From an uncultured Pseudomonadales bacterium (GTDB taxonomy: Bacteria; Patescibacteriota; Microgenomatia; UBA1400; CG1-02-47-37), in contig CAZVYS010000001.1 in assembly GCA_964630755.1 (NCBI GenBank), positions 25,893 to 89,892 of the forward strand: a stretch of DNA of 64,000 bases, in the 5' to 3' direction. The translations under genes and the position numbers were made by a program. The stretch's first letter is position 1; the number at the start of each line of letters is the position of its first letter. This document shows positions 47,988 to 58,364 of this stretch, one piece after another. Under the pieces are notes generated by a model, which did no database searches, was not told the DNA's origin, and saw only the letters and a list, made by a program, of their open reading frames with translations.

Positions 47988-49006
47988 AATTTAAAAGCGT
48001 TTAGTAATCTTCTAACTTCTGACGGCTTTGAGGCTTTCATTAACTGAACTCTTAAAACTAAGGCATTGTCAAAACCTTTTATATATATTTTAAAGAATCT
48101 TTTCAAACTATGGAATGATTTTAAATTATTATTGGTTTGTTCAAAAAGCTTGAGGTGACTTAATAAAAGGTTAATTTTTTGTTTAGGGGTTTTTGAGTTG
48201 ATGGTTTGATTAGGATTAAAAATATATGGATCAAGCAAAACTCCCCTGCCGATCATGATGCCATCTAAAGAGTGTTTTTTAATCATGCTTTTTGCTTCTA
48301 AAAGGCTTTTAATATCACCATTACCGATGATTTTGGTTTTGGGGCTAAGCTTGTCTCTTAAAATAATAATTTTTTTTAGTTCCTGCCAATGAGGTTTTAC
48401 CTCTGACAGTTCTTTTTTGGTACGAAGATGAATGGTTAGAGCATCTAGGTTCAAAGAGAGTAAAAAGCCAAGCCATTCTTCAGTTTGAATCGAGTTAAAA
48501 CCTAATCTGGTTTTGACTGAAACGGGAGTTTTTTGATTGGCTCCAATTTGGGTGGCTTTGATAATTTCTTTAGCTATTTTAGGAGCGTTGATTAAAGCAG
48601 CGCCAGCGCCTTTTTTGATGACCGCTTTAACTGGACAGCCAAGATTAATATCTATGCCGTCAAAACCAAGTTTGCAGAGGAGCTTAGCTGTTTGTTCAAA
48701 TAATTCTGGGGTGGTACCCCAAATTTGGGCAATGAGCGGTTTTTGCTTTTTTTGATATTGAAGACGTCTAATAGAAGCAGTTTTGTCGTGAGAGAAAATG
48801 GCCTTGACATGAGTAAATTCGGTAAACATAAGATCTGGTTTGCCTAGATCACACAAAAGCGACCTAAATACTTCGTCAGTGACTCCATCCATAGGAGCAA
48901 GACATATGATTGGTTTTTTTAACTCTTGCCAAATATTTATCATACTGAGATTATATAATAGACAGACATGGCAAAAGATAAATATACAGCAGTTTGGGTA
49001 TCGCAT
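47984..49006 (-). CDS. dus: tRNA-dihydrouridine synthase
   Basis: ICLAPMDGVTDEVFR (the FMN-binding Dus motif) and a TIM-barrel pattern. The likelier start is MINIWQEL. Confidence 0.75.
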   Translation of the reverse strand: MRYPNCCIFIFCHVCLLYNLSMINIWQELKKPIICLAPMDGVTDEVFRSLLCDLGKPDLMFTEFTHVKAIFSHDKTASIRRLQYQKKQKPLIAQIWGTTPELFEQTAKLLCKLGFDGIDINLGCPVKAVIKKGAGAALINAPKIAKEIIKATQIGANQKTPVSVKTRLGFNSIQTEEWLGFLLSLNLDALTIHLRTKKELSEVKPHWQELKKIIILRDKLSPKTKIIGNGDIKSLLEAKSMIKKHSLDGIMIGRGVLLDPYIFNPNQTINSKTPKQKINLLLSHLKLFEQTNNNLKSFHSLKRFFKIYIKGFDNALVLRVQLMKASKPSEVRRLLNAFKL

Positions 49007-49828
49007 TCGTCAATTTCTGATTGGCTAGTGTGTCCTCGGGCCTACTTTCTTAAAAACGTTTACAAAGATCCAAAAACTGGGCGAAAGATATCCTTGGTTA
49101 GTCCGCCGTTAACTTTAGGAAAGGTAGTTCATGAAGTAGTGGAAGGATTATCGGTTTTGCCTCTTGAAAAGAGATTTAACGAACCTCTTTTGGCGAAGTT
49201 TGAAGAAAAGTGGCAACAAGTGAGCGGTAGGGCAGGAGGTTTTTTTAGCAAAGATGTGGAAATGAAGTATAAACAGCGAGGCCAAGAAATGCTAAAGAGA
49301 ATTACTAGAAATCCTGGGCCTCTAAATCGTCTGGCAGTAAAAATCCAGATGGAATTGCCTTATTATTGGCTTTCTGAAAAAGATAATATTATACTTTGCG
49401 GCATGATTGACTGGCTTGAGTATCTTGAAAAAGAAGACGCTGTTGCTATTATTGATTTTAAGACTGGTAAAAAAAGAGAGAAGAAAGGTTCTTTGCAGCT
49501 GCCTATTTACTACTTGTTGGCGACAGAAACTCAAAAAAGAGCAGTTAAGAAAGCTAGTTACTGGTATGTTTCTTTAGCTGATAAACCAGTTGAGCAAAAA
49601 TTACCAGATGCTGCAAAGTCCCGAGAAAAAATCTTAAAGATAGCAAAAGAGATTAAGTTGGCTCGACAACTAGAGAGATTTAAGTGTCCGAATAATGGTT
49701 GTCGAGCTTGTGAACCGTTTGAGGACGTTATTAATGGTAAGGCAGAATTAGTGGGAACGGATAATATTAATCGTGATGTATATATTTATTTAAAAAACGA
49801 AGATCAAACTGAAGGGGAAATATTGTGA
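48968..49828 (+). CDS. PD-(D/E)XK nuclease, Cas4/RecB-like (DUF83), with a putative Fe-S cysteine cluster
   Basis: N-terminal Cys (CPRAYFL); core motif GMIDWLEY...AIIDFKTGKK (the D...ExK pattern); C-terminal CPNNGCRAC cysteines as in Cas4 / AddB 4Fe-4S nucleases. Confidence 0.5.
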   Translation: MAKDKYTAVWVSHSSISDWLVCPRAYFLKNVYKDPKTGRKISLVSPPLTLGKVVHEVVEGLSVLPLEKRFNEPLLAKFEEKWQQVSGRAGGFFSKDVEMKYKQRGQEMLKRITRNPGPLNRLAVKIQMELPYYWLSEKDNIILCGMIDWLEYLEKEDAVAIIDFKTGKKREKKGSLQLPIYYLLATETQKRAVKKASYWYVSLADKPVEQKLPDAAKSREKILKIAKEIKLARQLERFKCPNNGCRACEPFEDVINGKAELVGTDNINRDVYIYLKNEDQTEGEIL

Positions 49829-50154
49829 CAGATAAGAGGGGCAAAGTTTTAAGGTGGGTGGGTAAGATTCCTAAAGGCAAGGTGTCTACATACGGTCGGA
49901 TTGCAAAACTAGCAAAAGTTAAAAGTGCCAGGCCAGTTGGTAACTGGCTGCACACTCATGGTAAACCAATCAGTATTGTCCCCTGTCATCGGGTGGTAAA
50001 TGCTCAAGGCAAGCTTGCTTTAAATTTTGGAGCTAAAGGTGGGATAAAAACTCAAAAAAAACGATTAGAAAATGAAGAGGTTAAGGTGGAAAACTATAAA
50101 GTAGATCTAGATAAATATTTATGGAAGCCTACAGGGAGTCTATTTGAAAGTTAG
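49825..50154 (+). CDS. ogt: methylated-DNA--protein-cysteine methyltransferase (Ogt/MGMT DNA-binding domain)
   Basis: VSTYGRIAKL...PCHRVVNAQGKL, with the PCHRV active-site motif. Start overlaps the upstream nuclease gene by 4 nt. Confidence 0.7.
   Translation: MTDKRGKVLRWVGKIPKGKVSTYGRIAKLAKVKSARPVGNWLHTHGKPISIVPCHRVVNAQGKLALNFGAKGGIKTQKKRLENEEVKVENYKVDLDKYLWKPTGSLFES
50128..50150. repeat. degenerate palindromic element copy (CCTACAGGGAGTCTATTTGAAAG) in the last codons of ogt
   Basis: Left arm and core match the family (CCTACAGGGAGTCT); the right arm is decayed. Confidence 0.3.
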
Positions 50155-53341: not shown

Positions 53342-53726
53342 CTGCTATTTTTTGAGCATCTTCTTTTTTAAGAGCACCAACAGTCATACGCTTGCCTCGT
53401 TTAGTACGAGCATTGTGCCGAGTACGTTGGCCTCTACTTGGTAACTTGGCAGTATGACGTATACCTCTGTATGTCCCGATCTGCTTAAGCCTTTTAATAT
53501 TCTCAGTAATAATTTTTCTTAATGGACCCTCTGTAGGAATAGTGTCAATGGCTTTTTGAAGTCTCATAATTTCATCTGAACTTAGATCTTTAGCTCGTTT
53601 GTTACTGTCAACATTAGCAAGCTTCAAAATCTTTGAAACATTTTGACGACCAATACCGAAAATGTAGGTAAGGGCAATCTCGGTTCGTTTATGTGGAGGA
53701 ATATCGATTCCAGAAATTCTTGGCAT
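53325..53726 (-). CDS. rpsM: 30S ribosomal protein S13
   Basis: MPRISGIDIPPHKRTEIALTYIFGIGR. Confidence 0.9.
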   Translation of the reverse strand: MPRISGIDIPPHKRTEIALTYIFGIGRQNVSKILKLANVDSNKRAKDLSSDEIMRLQKAIDTIPTEGPLRKIITENIKRLKQIGTYRGIRHTAKLPSRGQRTRHNARTKRGKRMTVGALKKEDAQKIADASKK

Positions 53727-53908: not shown

Positions 53909-54130
53909 TTATTTTAGCCGGTAAGTTATCCGACCCTTAGTTTTGTCGTAAGGAGTCTGTTCAATCTTAACTTGATCACCAGGTAAAACTCGAATACGAT
54001 ACATGCGCATTTTGCCAGCAAGGTGACAAAGGATGGTTTTATCTGAATTGTTAAGCTTAACTTTAAAGGTAGCGTTAGGAAGAGCTTCCTCTACAACCCC
54101 TTCGACTTGAACTACATCGTTAGTAGACAT
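53909..54130 (-). CDS. infA: translation initiation factor IF-1
   Basis: [20 protein letters not shown]...[30 protein letters not shown]. Confidence 0.9.
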
Positions 54131-54152: not shown

Positions 54153-54917
54153 TTACTCAGTTAATGCCACTGGCCCGTTTTTAGTAATGGCGACAGTGTG
54201 TTCAAACATAGCTGCGTCTTTTTGGTCTTTTGTAATAATGGTCCAGTTATCTTTAGGGTCAGTTATGGTTTTATGATTACCAGCCATGTAAATAGCTTCA
54301 ATAGCAATAACTAAGCCTGGTTCTATTATTGGTGTTTGAGTAATTGGTTTGTCTATAAAGCAGGGAATGGCTGGAGATTCGTGAAGATTCTTTCCTAAAC
54401 CATGACCAGTTAGATTACGGGCAACGTTATAGCCATATTTTTCAATTGAAATTTGCATTGCTTGAGAAATATGACCAATTCGGTTGCCGGGCTTAGCTTG
54501 ACTAATAGCTTGTTTAAGAGCCTTTTGGCCAGCAATTAGTAGTTTTTGTTTTTTGGGATACTTGTCTTCTTGGCCAGCAATGAAACTAACTGCTGAATCT
54601 GTGTGAAAACCTTTAAAATACAGGCCAATATCTATAGTAACTATGTCTCCTTGTTTAATGACTTTTTTATCAGGTACTCCATGAACTAAACCGTGATTAA
54701 GATTGATACAGGTAGCCCAGCTGTAACCTGGAACAAGGGAAAAACTAGGTTGACCACCGGACTCACTAATCAAGCTTAAGGCTTTTCCTTCGATTAAGTT
54801 AAGTTTAACTCCAGGCTTAGCCATGGACTTTAAGTAGTTTCGAATATGTTTTAGTTTTTGGCCACCAACTTTCATGATGGCAATTTCTGAAGCAGACTTA
54901 AGATTAATTTGGGTCAT
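54153..54917 (-). CDS. map: methionine aminopeptidase, type I
   Basis: Pita-bread fold metal ligands (D...D...H...E...E pattern; GHGLGKNLHESP). Confidence 0.85.
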   Translation of the reverse strand: MTQINLKSASEIAIMKVGGQKLKHIRNYLKSMAKPGVKLNLIEGKALSLISESGGQPSFSLVPGYSWATCINLNHGLVHGVPDKKVIKQGDIVTIDIGLYFKGFHTDSAVSFIAGQEDKYPKKQKLLIAGQKALKQAISQAKPGNRIGHISQAMQISIEKYGYNVARNLTGHGLGKNLHESPAIPCFIDKPITQTPIIEPGLVIAIEAIYMAGNHKTITDPKDNWTIITKDQKDAAMFEHTVAITKNGPVALTE

Positions 54918-55483
54918 TTTTTCAAAAGCTTAATTTCTGCTAAAACTTGGTCAAGTTCATGGTGTAAATGTTCTTGAGTTTGATGGTTTATAATTAAAAA
55001 ATCGCTAATTGCAATTGGCCCACCTTTGTGAGAATAAACAATTTCTCTAATATCTCGTTTCCTGGCTTCGTCTCTTGATAGTGGACGAATGGATCTATTA
55101 GCCAGTCTTTGGTAACGAATATTAGGTTTAGCAAAAATACAGACAAGAAAAAAATTATTGTATTTATTAAAAAGATATTCATATTCCTCCCAGGAATAAA
55201 GACCATCGAGAATAACAACTGAAGATTTTTTTAAGGCTTTGTCAATTCGTGGTTTGATTTTTTTTGCATAAGCAGCCATGCCTAGTTTTTTTCTTAGATT
55301 TTCACGATATTGACTCTCGTTTTTTTCAGTTAAGGGTAGCCCAAGATTCTTTAATCCAAGATCTGTTTGATCGCCAAATCTTAAAACTGGAAAACCTTTT
55401 AAAGAAAAATGCTCACTAGCTACAGATTTTCCAGAACCAGCCATGCCAACTAAAGCAATAATAGAGGTTGGTTTATGATCCAT
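54914..55483 (-). CDS. P-loop nucleoside/nucleotide kinase-like protein inserted between adk and map (CoaE- or archaeal Cmk-like)
   Basis: Walker A IALVGMAGSGKSVA, a lid-like region and a DxxxR pattern. About 189 aa; overlaps map by 4 nt. Confidence 0.4.
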   Translation of the reverse strand: MDHKPTSIIALVGMAGSGKSVASEHFSLKGFPVLRFGDQTDLGLKNLGLPLTEKNESQYRENLRKKLGMAAYAKKIKPRIDKALKKSSVVILDGLYSWEEYEYLFNKYNNFFLVCIFAKPNIRYQRLANRSIRPLSRDEARKRDIREIVYSHKGGPIAISDFLIINHQTQEHLHHELDQVLAEIKLLKK

Positions 55484-56051
55484 TATTTATGGCCTTATAA
55501 ATGTCTTGATGAATGCTATCAATCGTTTGCTCGCCGTTAATTTTAGTTAATAATAATTTTTCTTGAAAATAAGCTAATACATCGGCTTCTTGCTTTTGAT
55601 AAATACGAAGACGTGACTGAATTTTTTCATCTGAGTCATGTAAGGTGCCATCTGGGCTTAATCGCTTTCTTTTCTTTAGTCTTTTGACAGATTCAATCTC
55701 TGATACGTCTAGATAAAAAACATAGTCAATTTTCTTGCCATATTTATCAAGTTTTTCGGTTAAAAATAAAGCTTGAGTGTGGTTCCTTGGAAAACCATCG
55801 ATAACAAAACCAGATTCAACATCTGGTTCTTTTAAGCGAACTTTCCATAAAACAAACATTTCTGAGTCGGCAACGTAATGACCTTTATCTAAAGCTTCGC
55901 GACAAATATCTCCCATAATGCCCTGGTCTTTTTTGGCATAAAATCTGACTAAGTTGCCTGAATTTAAAAAAGGGAGCTTAAGTTTTTCGGCCAACATTTT
56001 TCCCTGAGTGGATTTTCCAGATCCTTCTGGCCCGTAAAGAACAATAAACAT
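55473..56051 (-). CDS. adk: adenylate kinase (short form)
   Basis: MFIVLYGPEGSGKSTQ P-loop plus NMP-binding and LID remnants. Position after secY. Confidence 0.8.
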   Translation of the reverse strand: MFIVLYGPEGSGKSTQGKMLAEKLKLPFLNSGNLVRFYAKKDQGIMGDICREALDKGHYVADSEMFVLWKVRLKEPDVESGFVIDGFPRNHTQALFLTEKLDKYGKKIDYVFYLDVSEIESVKRLKKRKRLSPDGTLHDSDEKIQSRLRIYQKQEADVLAYFQEKLLLTKINGEQTIDSIHQDIYKAINNGS

Positions 56052-56103: not shown

Positions 56104-57387
56104 TTATTTAATAAAACTGTCATAGTTTCTCATAATCAATTGAGCTTCTAATCCTTTGCTGACTTCTAGAATAACTGAAACGACGATTAAAATTCCTGTG
56201 CCACCAATAGTTAAGGTGGTAATGCCAGTAGCTAATCTAGCTAGTGAAGGCAAGATAGCAATTAAGCCTAAAAAGAGGGCGCCAGCCAAAGTAATACGAT
56301 TAAGCACGTAAGATAAGTAATCGGCAGTGGGTTTTCCAGGTCGAATACCAGGAATAAAGCCGCCATATTTTTTAATATCTTGTGAAATTTTATCTGGATT
56401 AAAAGTAACAGCAGTATAAAAATAAGTAAAGCCAAGAACTAAGAAAAAATAAATAAAGTGATAAGGGGGTTGATTGGGATCAAAAATATTGACTAATTTT
56501 GAGGCAAAAGAAACAATCCTTGGATTATTCAGCTGCATTAACCAACGACCGACAACAGAAGGCATGATTACTAAAGAAACAGCAAAAATAATAGGAATTA
56601 CGCCAGCCTGATTAACTCTTAACGGTAGATGAGTTGACTGACCACCAGAAACAGATTGGCCTCGAACGCGCCTGGCATAGCGAACAGTGATTTGACGAGT
56701 GGCTTCGTTAACATAAACAATACCAGCAATAACAAACAAGCTAAGAATTAAGAAAGTTAAGATGCTGGTGAAATTTAAAGTTTGACTGATTGAGCTAGTT
56801 TGCAACAAAGAAATAGGAAGCCTACCAACAATGCCAGCAAAGATTAAAAGAGAAATTCCGTTACCAATTCCGTATTCTGTTAATAATTCACCAAACCACA
56901 TTAAAAGAATTGTTCCCGCCACCATGGTGGCTACTATACTTATGATGGTGAAAGGATTAGTGAAGCTAATGATTTGTTGAGTTCGTAATAAAGTTATCAT
57001 GCCAATCGATTGAACTGTGGCTAAAGGAACAGCCAAAATACGTGTCCACTGGTTAAGTTTTTCTCGACCAATTTGACCTTCTTTTTGCATTTCTTCAAGT
57101 TTAGGGAAAATAATCGTTAAGAGTTGAAAAACAATTGAGGCGTTAATGTAAGGGGTTAATCCTAGGGCCATGATAGAAAAATTAGCTAAGGTGCCACCAG
57201 AAAAAATATCTAGTAAGCCTAAAAGTTGGTTTGAACCGAAAAGTTGTTTTAAAGCATTTAAGTCAACGCCTGGAACGGGAATATGAGCGATAAATCTAAA
57301 AATTACAAAAATGGCTAAAGTAATAAGAAACTTTTTTCGTAAGTCTTTGATCTTAAAAACATTGATTGCTGATTGAAGCAGTTTCAT
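56104..57387 (-). CDS. secY: preprotein translocase subunit SecY
   Basis: Ten transmembrane helices; conserved SecY motifs; position after rplO. Confidence 0.9.
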
Positions 57388-57902: not shown

Positions 57903-58364
57903 TTAATCTGATTTAAGTTGTTTTAAAGCTCTGATAGTACAGTATACGTTTGAAGCTTGATTTTTGGTACCCAATACCTTACTTGAGACATCTTTTATTC
58001 CAGCGGCTTCCATCACGGCTCGAACAGCTCCACCGGCAATCACTCCAGATCCAACTGGAGCTGGCTTTAGTAAAACTTTGGCTGCACCAAACTTTACTTT
58101 GATATCGTGAGGAATAGTTGTGTTTTTCATGGGAACGCGAAACATGTTTTTTTTAGCTCTTCTAACACCTTTTTTAATAGAAGATAAAACATCTGGTGCT
58201 TTTCCTAAACCAACACCAACTTTGCCTTTCTTGTCCCCAACTACCATTAAGACAGAAAAGCCAATCTGATTGCCACCTTTGGTTTTTTTACTAACCCGAT
58301 TAACCTGAATGACTTTTTCATCAAATTCTTTTTCTCTTCGCGGATCTCTTGATCTATTATTCAT
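57903..58364 (-). CDS. rpsE: 30S ribosomal protein S5
   Basis: S5 dsRBD and C-terminal domain. Abuts rplO directly, with no L30 gene between. Confidence 0.9.
   Translation of the reverse strand: MNNRSRDPRREKEFDEKVIQVNRVSKKTKGGNQIGFSVLMVVGDKKGKVGVGLGKAPDVLSSIKKGVRRAKKNMFRVPMKNTTIPHDIKVKFGAAKVLLKPAPVGSGVIAGGAVRAVMEAAGIKDVSSKVLGTKNQASNVYCTIRALKQLKSD

Follow-up and report, generated by a model that had tools for sequence, protein, structure and literature searches.

A P-loop kinase-fold gene between adk and map in ribosomal super-operons of Patescibacteria, and its possible role in pyrimidine nucleotide metabolism

An extra P-loop gene in a ribosomal super-operon

The window analysed here is a 64,000-nucleotide (64-kb) stretch of contig CAZVYS010000001.1, and our subject is a gene on its minus strand, called X below, that lies between adk (adenylate kinase) and map (methionine aminopeptidase) in the ribosomal super-operon. 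X encodes a 189-residue protein with a Walker A motif, whose translation begins MDHKPTSIIALVGMAGSGKSVA. The sequence-only reading that drew attention to this gene had described it as inserted with overlaps of 11 and 4 nucleotides, and direct reading of the minus strand confirmed this. The adk/X junction reads AATAATGGATCATAAACC, with the ATG of X 11 nucleotides inside the end of adk (overlap ATGGATCATAA), and the X/map junction reads AAAAAATGACCC, with ATGA shared by the two genes. X thus overlaps both neighbours, lies on the same strand and is not separated from them by an internal terminator. Between positions 53700 and 57500, promoter-like and terminator-like matches were in no excess over shuffled expectation, and the minus strand had no terminator-like site. 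Because of this common orientation, the two overlaps and the lack of signals above the shuffled level, X is very probably carried on the super-operon transcript and translationally coupled to Adk and Map, as far as the sequence can tell.

Homology searches revealed that X belongs to a large protein family. Of the 981 homologues that came up in a word-indexed search, the top-ranking 120 are 54-66% identical to X. An exhaustive profile search of 1.84 billion representatives returned 3188 proteins at E<=1e-3, with 1232 of them passing E<=1e-10 and 234 passing E<=1e-30. An alignment of 30 family members has 40 invariant columns, which include GMxGxGK, RFG, E56/R60/E61/R64, GM.A.A, LDGLYSWEE, R123/R126/R130/R133, R143-D144, K153..PIA and D161..N166. 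In addition, independent metagenome contigs carry the identical protein in the same place. The number of homologues, the invariant columns and the independent copies establish that X is a real gene and not a chance open reading frame (ORF). The motifs GMxGxGK, (R)FGD, DGLYSWEE and KGGPIA, together with an arginine-rich LID, define the family, which we refer to as the LDGLYSWEE family. Its fold is that of the nucleoside monophosphate (NMP) kinases, as described below. Positions of X, its motifs and its operon neighbours are listed in Table 1.

Table 1. Positions of X, its motifs and the neighbouring genes in the window
Feature	Position	Strand	Basis
X, 189-residue P-loop NMP-kinase-fold protein, LDGLYSWEE family (Pfam AAA_18, UPF0200-related)	54914..55483	minus	ORF, ATG to TGA
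Walker A / P-loop GMAGSGKS, residues 13-20	55424..55447	minus	translation; G13, M14, G16, G18 and K19 invariant in 30-member alignment
Family signature DGLYSWEE, residues 93-100, after strand 3	55184..55207	minus	invariant in alignment; codons read directly
LID-like arginine cluster R123, R126, R130, R133	55085..55117	minus	invariant alignment columns
Overlap of adk end (TAA) and X start (ATG), 11 nucleotides	55473..55483	minus	read directly
ATGA overlap of X stop and map start, 4 nucleotides	54914..54917	minus	read directly
adk, adenylate kinase, short type, 192 residues, upstream of X	55473..56051	minus	PF00406, E 3.7e-32
map, type I methionine aminopeptidase, downstream of X	54153..54917	minus	TIGR00500, E 1e-69, 234.8 bits vs cut-off 171
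secY, operon context	56104..57387	minus	ORF; PF00344 on identical contig L002
infA, operon context, after map	53909..54130	minus	ORF; PF01176 on identical contig L001

The window has a GC content of 35.5% and compact minus-strand operons. A 37-residue rpmJ-like gene (ribosomal protein L36; 53734..53847, minus), smaller than the default size of the ORF list, lies between infA and the gene for S13. The genes for S5 (57903..58364, minus) and L15 (57388..57894, minus) are direct neighbours, and the L30 gene is missing from between them. The candidate phyla radiation (CPR)/Patescibacteria are known for lacking L30, and the S5-L15 order therefore agrees with a placement of the window in Patescibacteria. 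Directly after S9, the opposite (plus) strand carries a gene for a 286-residue PDDEXK_1-family protein and one for a 109-residue DNA_binding_1 (MGMT-like) protein (48968-50154), whose Pfam labels were taken from the identical contig L001.

Family and fold of X

X shows the Walker A motif, the five-stranded parallel sheet and the LID arginines of the P-loop NMP-kinase fold superfamily. The confident AlphaFold model of X (predicted local distance difference test score, pLDDT, 94.3; predicted template modelling score, pTM, 0.87) has the NMP-kinase fold, and in it the four invariant arginines are predicted to lie on helix 120-128 and in the loop after it. The only family model whose threshold X passed is Pfam AAA_18 (PF13238; 39.6 bits against a gathering threshold of 29.4), a generic one. 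The best sequence matches of X are proteins without an assigned function, namely PRK08356 ('hypothetical protein') and SSO1041 of Sulfolobus solfataricus (PDB 3LW7, 3H0K), a UPF0200 protein deposited with bound AMP as 'adenylate kinase related protein'. Foldseek with the X model also ranked 3LW7 first (template modelling score, TM, 0.80/0.88). The homology between X and SSO1041 covers the full length (phmmer E 6e-7; family profile E 5e-17) at an identity of 22-24%. X is nevertheless not a UPF0200 member: it scores 32.7 bits against the PRK08356 equivalog cut-off of 189, in a neighbour-joining tree the LDGLYSWEE proteins have SSO1041 as a remote outgroup, and the GM, FGD and KGGP motifs are missing from SSO1041, which has DGVRS where X has the invariant DGLYSWEE. 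From the tree position, the score below the cut-off and the missing motifs, X is placed by sequence as a sister family of UPF0200 within the NMP-kinase fold, outside every characterised family. X adds a new, uncharacterised protein to a familiar enzyme fold, and nothing in it departs from known biology.

The sequence-only reading had likened X, by size and layout, to an archaeal-type Cmk or a CoaE-like kinase, and neither identity survived the profile comparison. Archaeal Cmk follows adk in archaeal spc operons, but X had no match at E<=1 to TIGR02173, the archaeal Cmk model. The bacterial Cmk models PF02224 and TIGR00017, the UMP-CMP kinase models and the Adk model PF00406 also gave no match at E<=1. 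True Cmks found between adk and map in other operons scored 197-219 bits and are about 40 residues longer than X, and the X and ADK domains separate cleanly when their profile hidden Markov models (HMMs) compete. X scored 12 bits on the CoaE model PF01121 (cut-off 27) and 19.3 on TIGR00152 (cut-off 65.55), and only residues 8-34, that is, the P-loop, aligned. Model scores and structure ranking revealed no specific similarity to Fap7/hCINAP, and Fap7/AK6 was set aside. The classical NMP kinases, adenylate kinase and UMP/CMP kinase (yeast Ura6, PDB 1UKZ), differ from X in their NMP-binding motifs. The archaeal affinity noticed in the sequence-only reading thus stands in one respect, since the closest solved structure, SSO1041, is archaeal; it does not stand for the Cmk or CoaE identity, nor for the operon order discussed below. 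Databases label family members generically, as 'AAA family ATPase' (NCBI) or, in many cases, 'dephospho-CoA kinase' (JGI).

Viral sequences were also compared. A tblastn search of 50,697 phage records with X found nothing at E<=1e-3, and PHROG matches were weak and generic ('kinase', guanylate kinase, deoxy-NMP (dNMP) kinase). Two viral proteins in BFVD, R4TLC3 (251 residues) and G8DGT5 (328 residues), resemble the X model to the same degree as SSO1041 (TM 0.78-0.81).

Deaminase partners and the adk-map junction

To describe the genomic surroundings of the family, species representatives of GTDB were scanned for X, which gave 80 loci (69 of them non-CPR) with flanks of up to 10 kb. In the non-CPR loci, X is usually followed directly, on its own strand, by a gene for a deoxycytidine monophosphate (dCMP)/cytidine deaminase of about 160 residues (PF00383, E 7e-25). 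By tblastn, a dCMP deaminase adjoins X in 48 of the 69, including loci of Chloroflexota (Chloroflexia among them), Nanoarchaeota (one locus) and Woesearchaeota, and in Dehalococcoidia this partner is 69-88% identical between species. A dCTP-deaminase-like gene (PF22769) lies near X in eight loci, and in a Bacilli locus X comes after a T4-type dNMP kinase (PF21448). Furthermore, X and dCMP deaminase are fused in four cases (P0167, P0179, P0200, L057). Thus, the X family is linked to deoxypyrimidine enzymes across phyla. X is also fused to an HD_3 domain and to HAD phosphatases, which likewise count among its nucleotide-metabolism partners, and further fusions are with GNAT, HEAT repeats and DUF1858. 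The HEAT repeats (PBS-lyase-like) are C-terminal, as in P0170, P0217, P0228 and P0246. The family also occurs in cyanobacteria (Fischerella, Nostoc and Pleurocapsa labels; L060, L071, L074). For the HEAT-repeat and cyanobacterial members, no nucleotide-metabolism rationale is apparent.

The combination of kinase and deaminase is also found in AvcD/DcdV, where the two are parts of one protein. X corresponds to the N-terminal P-loop kinase-like domain of these enzymes: the PADLOC dCTP-deaminase model PDLC02373 aligns over residues 4-180 of X through its kinase-like region (E 2.6e-12), and NF041025, the NCBIfam model for anti-phage dCTP deaminase, aligns to residues 75-182. Natural X-deaminase fusions score 126-140 bits on the PADLOC model. 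By these alignments, X is homologous to the kinase-like domain of dCTP/dCMP deaminases, and the kinase-plus-deaminase architecture recurs in the X family as adjacent genes. X differs from AvcD/DcdV in being a core-operon gene rather than a defence-island gene and in having no deaminase domain; the C-terminal zinc deaminase motif (HxE...PCxxC) is absent from the 189-residue protein and from its operon. A preprint on DcdV/AvcD named the corresponding domain 'P-loop kinase' and reported that it is required for activity, leaving its chemistry undefined. Neither the structure nor the mechanism of the AvcD kinase domain was described in the literature that our searches found, and the same holds for the free-standing X family and its pairing with dCMP deaminase. 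The DGLYSWEE signature, absent from SSO1041, is kept in stand-alone, deaminase-adjacent and deaminase-fused members. The invariant residues of the family are in fact retained in every genomic context compared, which argues for one common activity.

In Patescibacteria, X is found in another place. The order secY-adk-X-map, as part of L15-secY-adk-X-map(-infA), was observed in each of the 11 operon-bearing Patescibacteria species loci, and further metagenomic contigs show the same order. The 11 loci are labelled Beckwith-, Gottesman-, Levy-, Nealson- and Saccharibacteria, with some labelled 'Gammaproteobacteria' that have the same operon and cluster with CPR; one Peregrinibacteria locus is an exception to the order. 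The closest species-level relative of the window carries a Candidatus Beckwithbacteria label (L004; SecY 81%, Adk 70% and X 61% identical). In one lineage, seen in two independent samples (L168:4001-5131, L169:421-1551), Adk and X are fused into a protein of 376 residues (P0203) that occupies the SecY-[Adk.X]-Map slot. Outside Patescibacteria, X was never in a ribosomal operon among the GTDB loci. The sequence-only reading had explained the insertion by an archaeal-like gene order, and this idea was not borne out: archaeal members adjoin or are fused to dCMP deaminase, tblastn with bacterial secY, adk and map probes found none of these genes near them, and in other CPR-like operons the slot is taken by a Cmk of bacterial type or by a second Adk. 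Literature searches returned nothing on the CPR operon insertion.

Four loci (L007, L009, L020, L066) carry 'uncultured Gammaproteobacteria' labels from binchicken/SRP co-assemblies. Three of them (L007, L009, L020) have Patescibacteria-type operons, with SecY 61-62% identical to that of the window and X clustering with CPR, and because of this operon and clustering their labels are probably wrong. In L066, X has no ribosomal operon around it; its neighbour is a dCMP deaminase gene, and its sequence groups with one from Woesearchaeota.

The junction was also approached from the other side. Using Map as the anchor, 80 metagenomic loci were fetched, and the 68 with enough upstream sequence were sorted by competing X and ADK profile HMMs. 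Plain adk-map without X was found in 44 and secY-map in 12, X lay directly before map in four and was separated from it by a further ~700 nucleotides in two, and the remaining six had other arrangements. A clear X was thus present in 6/68, and an extra P-loop kinase gene at this position is indeed unusual for a bacterium, as the sequence-only reading had held; the insertion is not common in ordinary bacterial operons. In several loci without X, SecY is 55-64% identical to that of the window, the range seen for labelled Microgenomates, so that X is absent even from fairly close relatives. The operon position of X is conserved but patchy, and it is specific to CPR.

Where X is missing, the slot may hold another nucleotide kinase. 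Bacterial Cmk (PF02224, E 1e-58 to 1e-65) occupies it in L099, L150, L102 and L095, and Cmk was assigned by similarity in L113 and L098. A second, divergent Adk paralogue lies between the canonical adk and map in L096 (2944-3498; PF00406 E 8e-21) and L143 (2828-3496; E 2e-24). Since X, Cmk and a second Adk are all found there, the adk-map junction repeatedly takes up nucleotide kinases. We also observed a second relative, more like SSO1041, that occupies the slot alongside Cmk: L102 (1740-3010) has the order adk, UPF0200-like gene, cmk, map, and L095 (39-1041) has UPF0200-like gene, cmk, map on a contig that begins inside the UPF0200-like gene and does not cover adk. This protein of 190 residues has a P-loop and a DGIR motif and scores 67 bits to the X profile, with no Pfam match at the 1e-5 limit.

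Proposed function and its alternatives

We propose that X has a housekeeping role as a pyrimidine (d)NMP kinase and is expressed together with Adk, a reading to which we give a probability of roughly 0.45, the substrate being inferred. In a reversible, ATP-dependent reaction, X would phosphorylate a pyrimidine (d)NMP, with dCMP, dUMP or CMP as the most plausible substrates. In non-CPR lineages, X and dCMP deaminase would form a module dCDP <-> dCMP -> dUMP, and the N-terminal 'P-loop kinase' of AvcD/DcdV-type dCTP deaminases would be the same domain. In Patescibacteria, X may have moved to the adk-map junction, the slot that holds Cmk or a second Adk in sister lineages, where the output of a nucleotide kinase would track the expression of ribosome and translation genes. 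Adk, with which X is co-expressed and sometimes fused, would rebalance the ADP made by X. The likeness to bacterial Cmk fits this proposal, as both have a P-loop NMP-kinase fold and use the same slot, and X plausibly also acts on cytosine nucleotides.

Several observations weigh against a pyrimidine kinase. Neither the 64-kb window nor the 4 kb around X in any CPR locus contains a dCMP deaminase by tblastn, and the deaminase link of CPR X is therefore transferred from other phyla. X is missing from most related operons, so it is dispensable or replaceable. Since the UPF0200-like relative coexists with Cmk in two operons, the family cannot be regarded as a mere stand-in for Cmk. The nucleotide in the SSO1041 crystals was AMP rather than a pyrimidine, and the arginine of the SSO1041 DGxR motif is an invariant tyrosine in X. 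By analogy with R88 of Adk, a tyrosine in place of this arginine could mean that the acceptor is something other than a 5'-phosphate. Finally, the literature searched holds no published activity for the X family or SSO1041, and the preprint leaves the role of the AvcD/DcdV kinase-like domain unsettled.

X could instead be an accessory that binds or hydrolyses nucleotides, either an NTP/dNTP sensor that regulates dCMP deaminase elsewhere and Adk here, or a phosphohydrolase producing dCMP from dCTP/dCDP. The frequent adjacency or fusion to a deaminase and the tyrosine of X in place of the SSO1041 motif arginine would suit such a role, and so would the report in the preprint that the kinase-like domain of AvcD/DcdV is needed for the deaminase-dependent toxicity of an enzyme acting on both dCTP and dCMP. 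We nevertheless consider this unlikely, as X retains the full kinase-type set of Walker A, DG motif and four invariant LID arginines, and CPR X has no deaminase near it and instead adjoins Adk, at a position that is elsewhere occupied by true NMP kinases. A further reading, which we hold improbable, makes X an NMP kinase for purines or with broad specificity, practically a second enzyme of the adenylate kinase type. The deposition of SSO1041 as an adenylate kinase relative with bound AMP, the second Adk paralogue in the same slot and the existence of an Adk-X fusion all point in this direction; on the other side, X does not match the Adk profile, its non-CPR genomic partners are cytosine and deoxypyrimidine enzymes, and its position next to a canonical Adk speaks for another substrate.

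The remaining alternatives have less in their favour. That X is the dephospho-CoA kinase CoaE of the organism, as the JGI labels would have it, is very unlikely: beyond the low CoaE scores, the genomic partners of the family are deoxypyrimidine enzymes and not CoA genes, and a CoA role gives no reason for adjacency or fusion to dCMP deaminase. A translation-linked or ribosome-biogenesis NTPase like Fap7/AK6 would explain why X lies inside a ribosomal protein super-operon, and Fap7/AK6 share Pfam AAA_18 with X; the lack of any specific Fap7/hCINAP resemblance makes this highly improbable. We reject the idea that X belongs to an AvcD-like anti-phage nucleotide-depletion system, hardly credible despite the matches to the PADLOC and NF041025 models, because X reaches only 26.5 bits on NF041025 against a cut-off of 400, lies in a core ribosomal operon whose synteny is conserved across Patescibacteria classes, and has here neither a deaminase domain nor a deaminase neighbour, and because the between-species identity of the Dehalococcoidia deaminase partner is housekeeping-like.

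If X is a pyrimidine kinase, a broader picture can be drawn, which as a whole we regard as doubtful. The LDGLYSWEE proteins, found in Patescibacteria, Chloroflexota, DPANN archaea, cyanobacteria and Bacilli, might be an unrecognised, widespread class of deoxypyrimidine nucleotide kinases that forms with dCMP deaminase an ancient module (dCDP/dCTP -> dCMP -> dUMP) feeding thymidylate synthesis. AvcD/DcdV would then be a weaponised fusion of this module, and Patescibacteria would have built its kinase half into their ribosomal super-operon next to Adk and, in one lineage, fused it to Adk. Should the substrate be as proposed, a common, generically labelled gene of Patescibacteria, Dehalococcoidia and DPANN would gain a role in dTMP/dCTP supply, and metabolic reconstructions that count X as CoaE would need correction. 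The 'P-loop kinase' domain of the AvcD/DcdV defence deaminases would likewise gain a housekeeping origin and a testable biochemical role. The adk-map junction of CPR ribosomal operons seems to serve repeatedly as a docking site, whether for X, for Cmk, for a second Adk or for an Adk-X fusion, and as such it offers a small but neat example of how reduced genomes couple nucleotide homeostasis to translation genes at the operon level.

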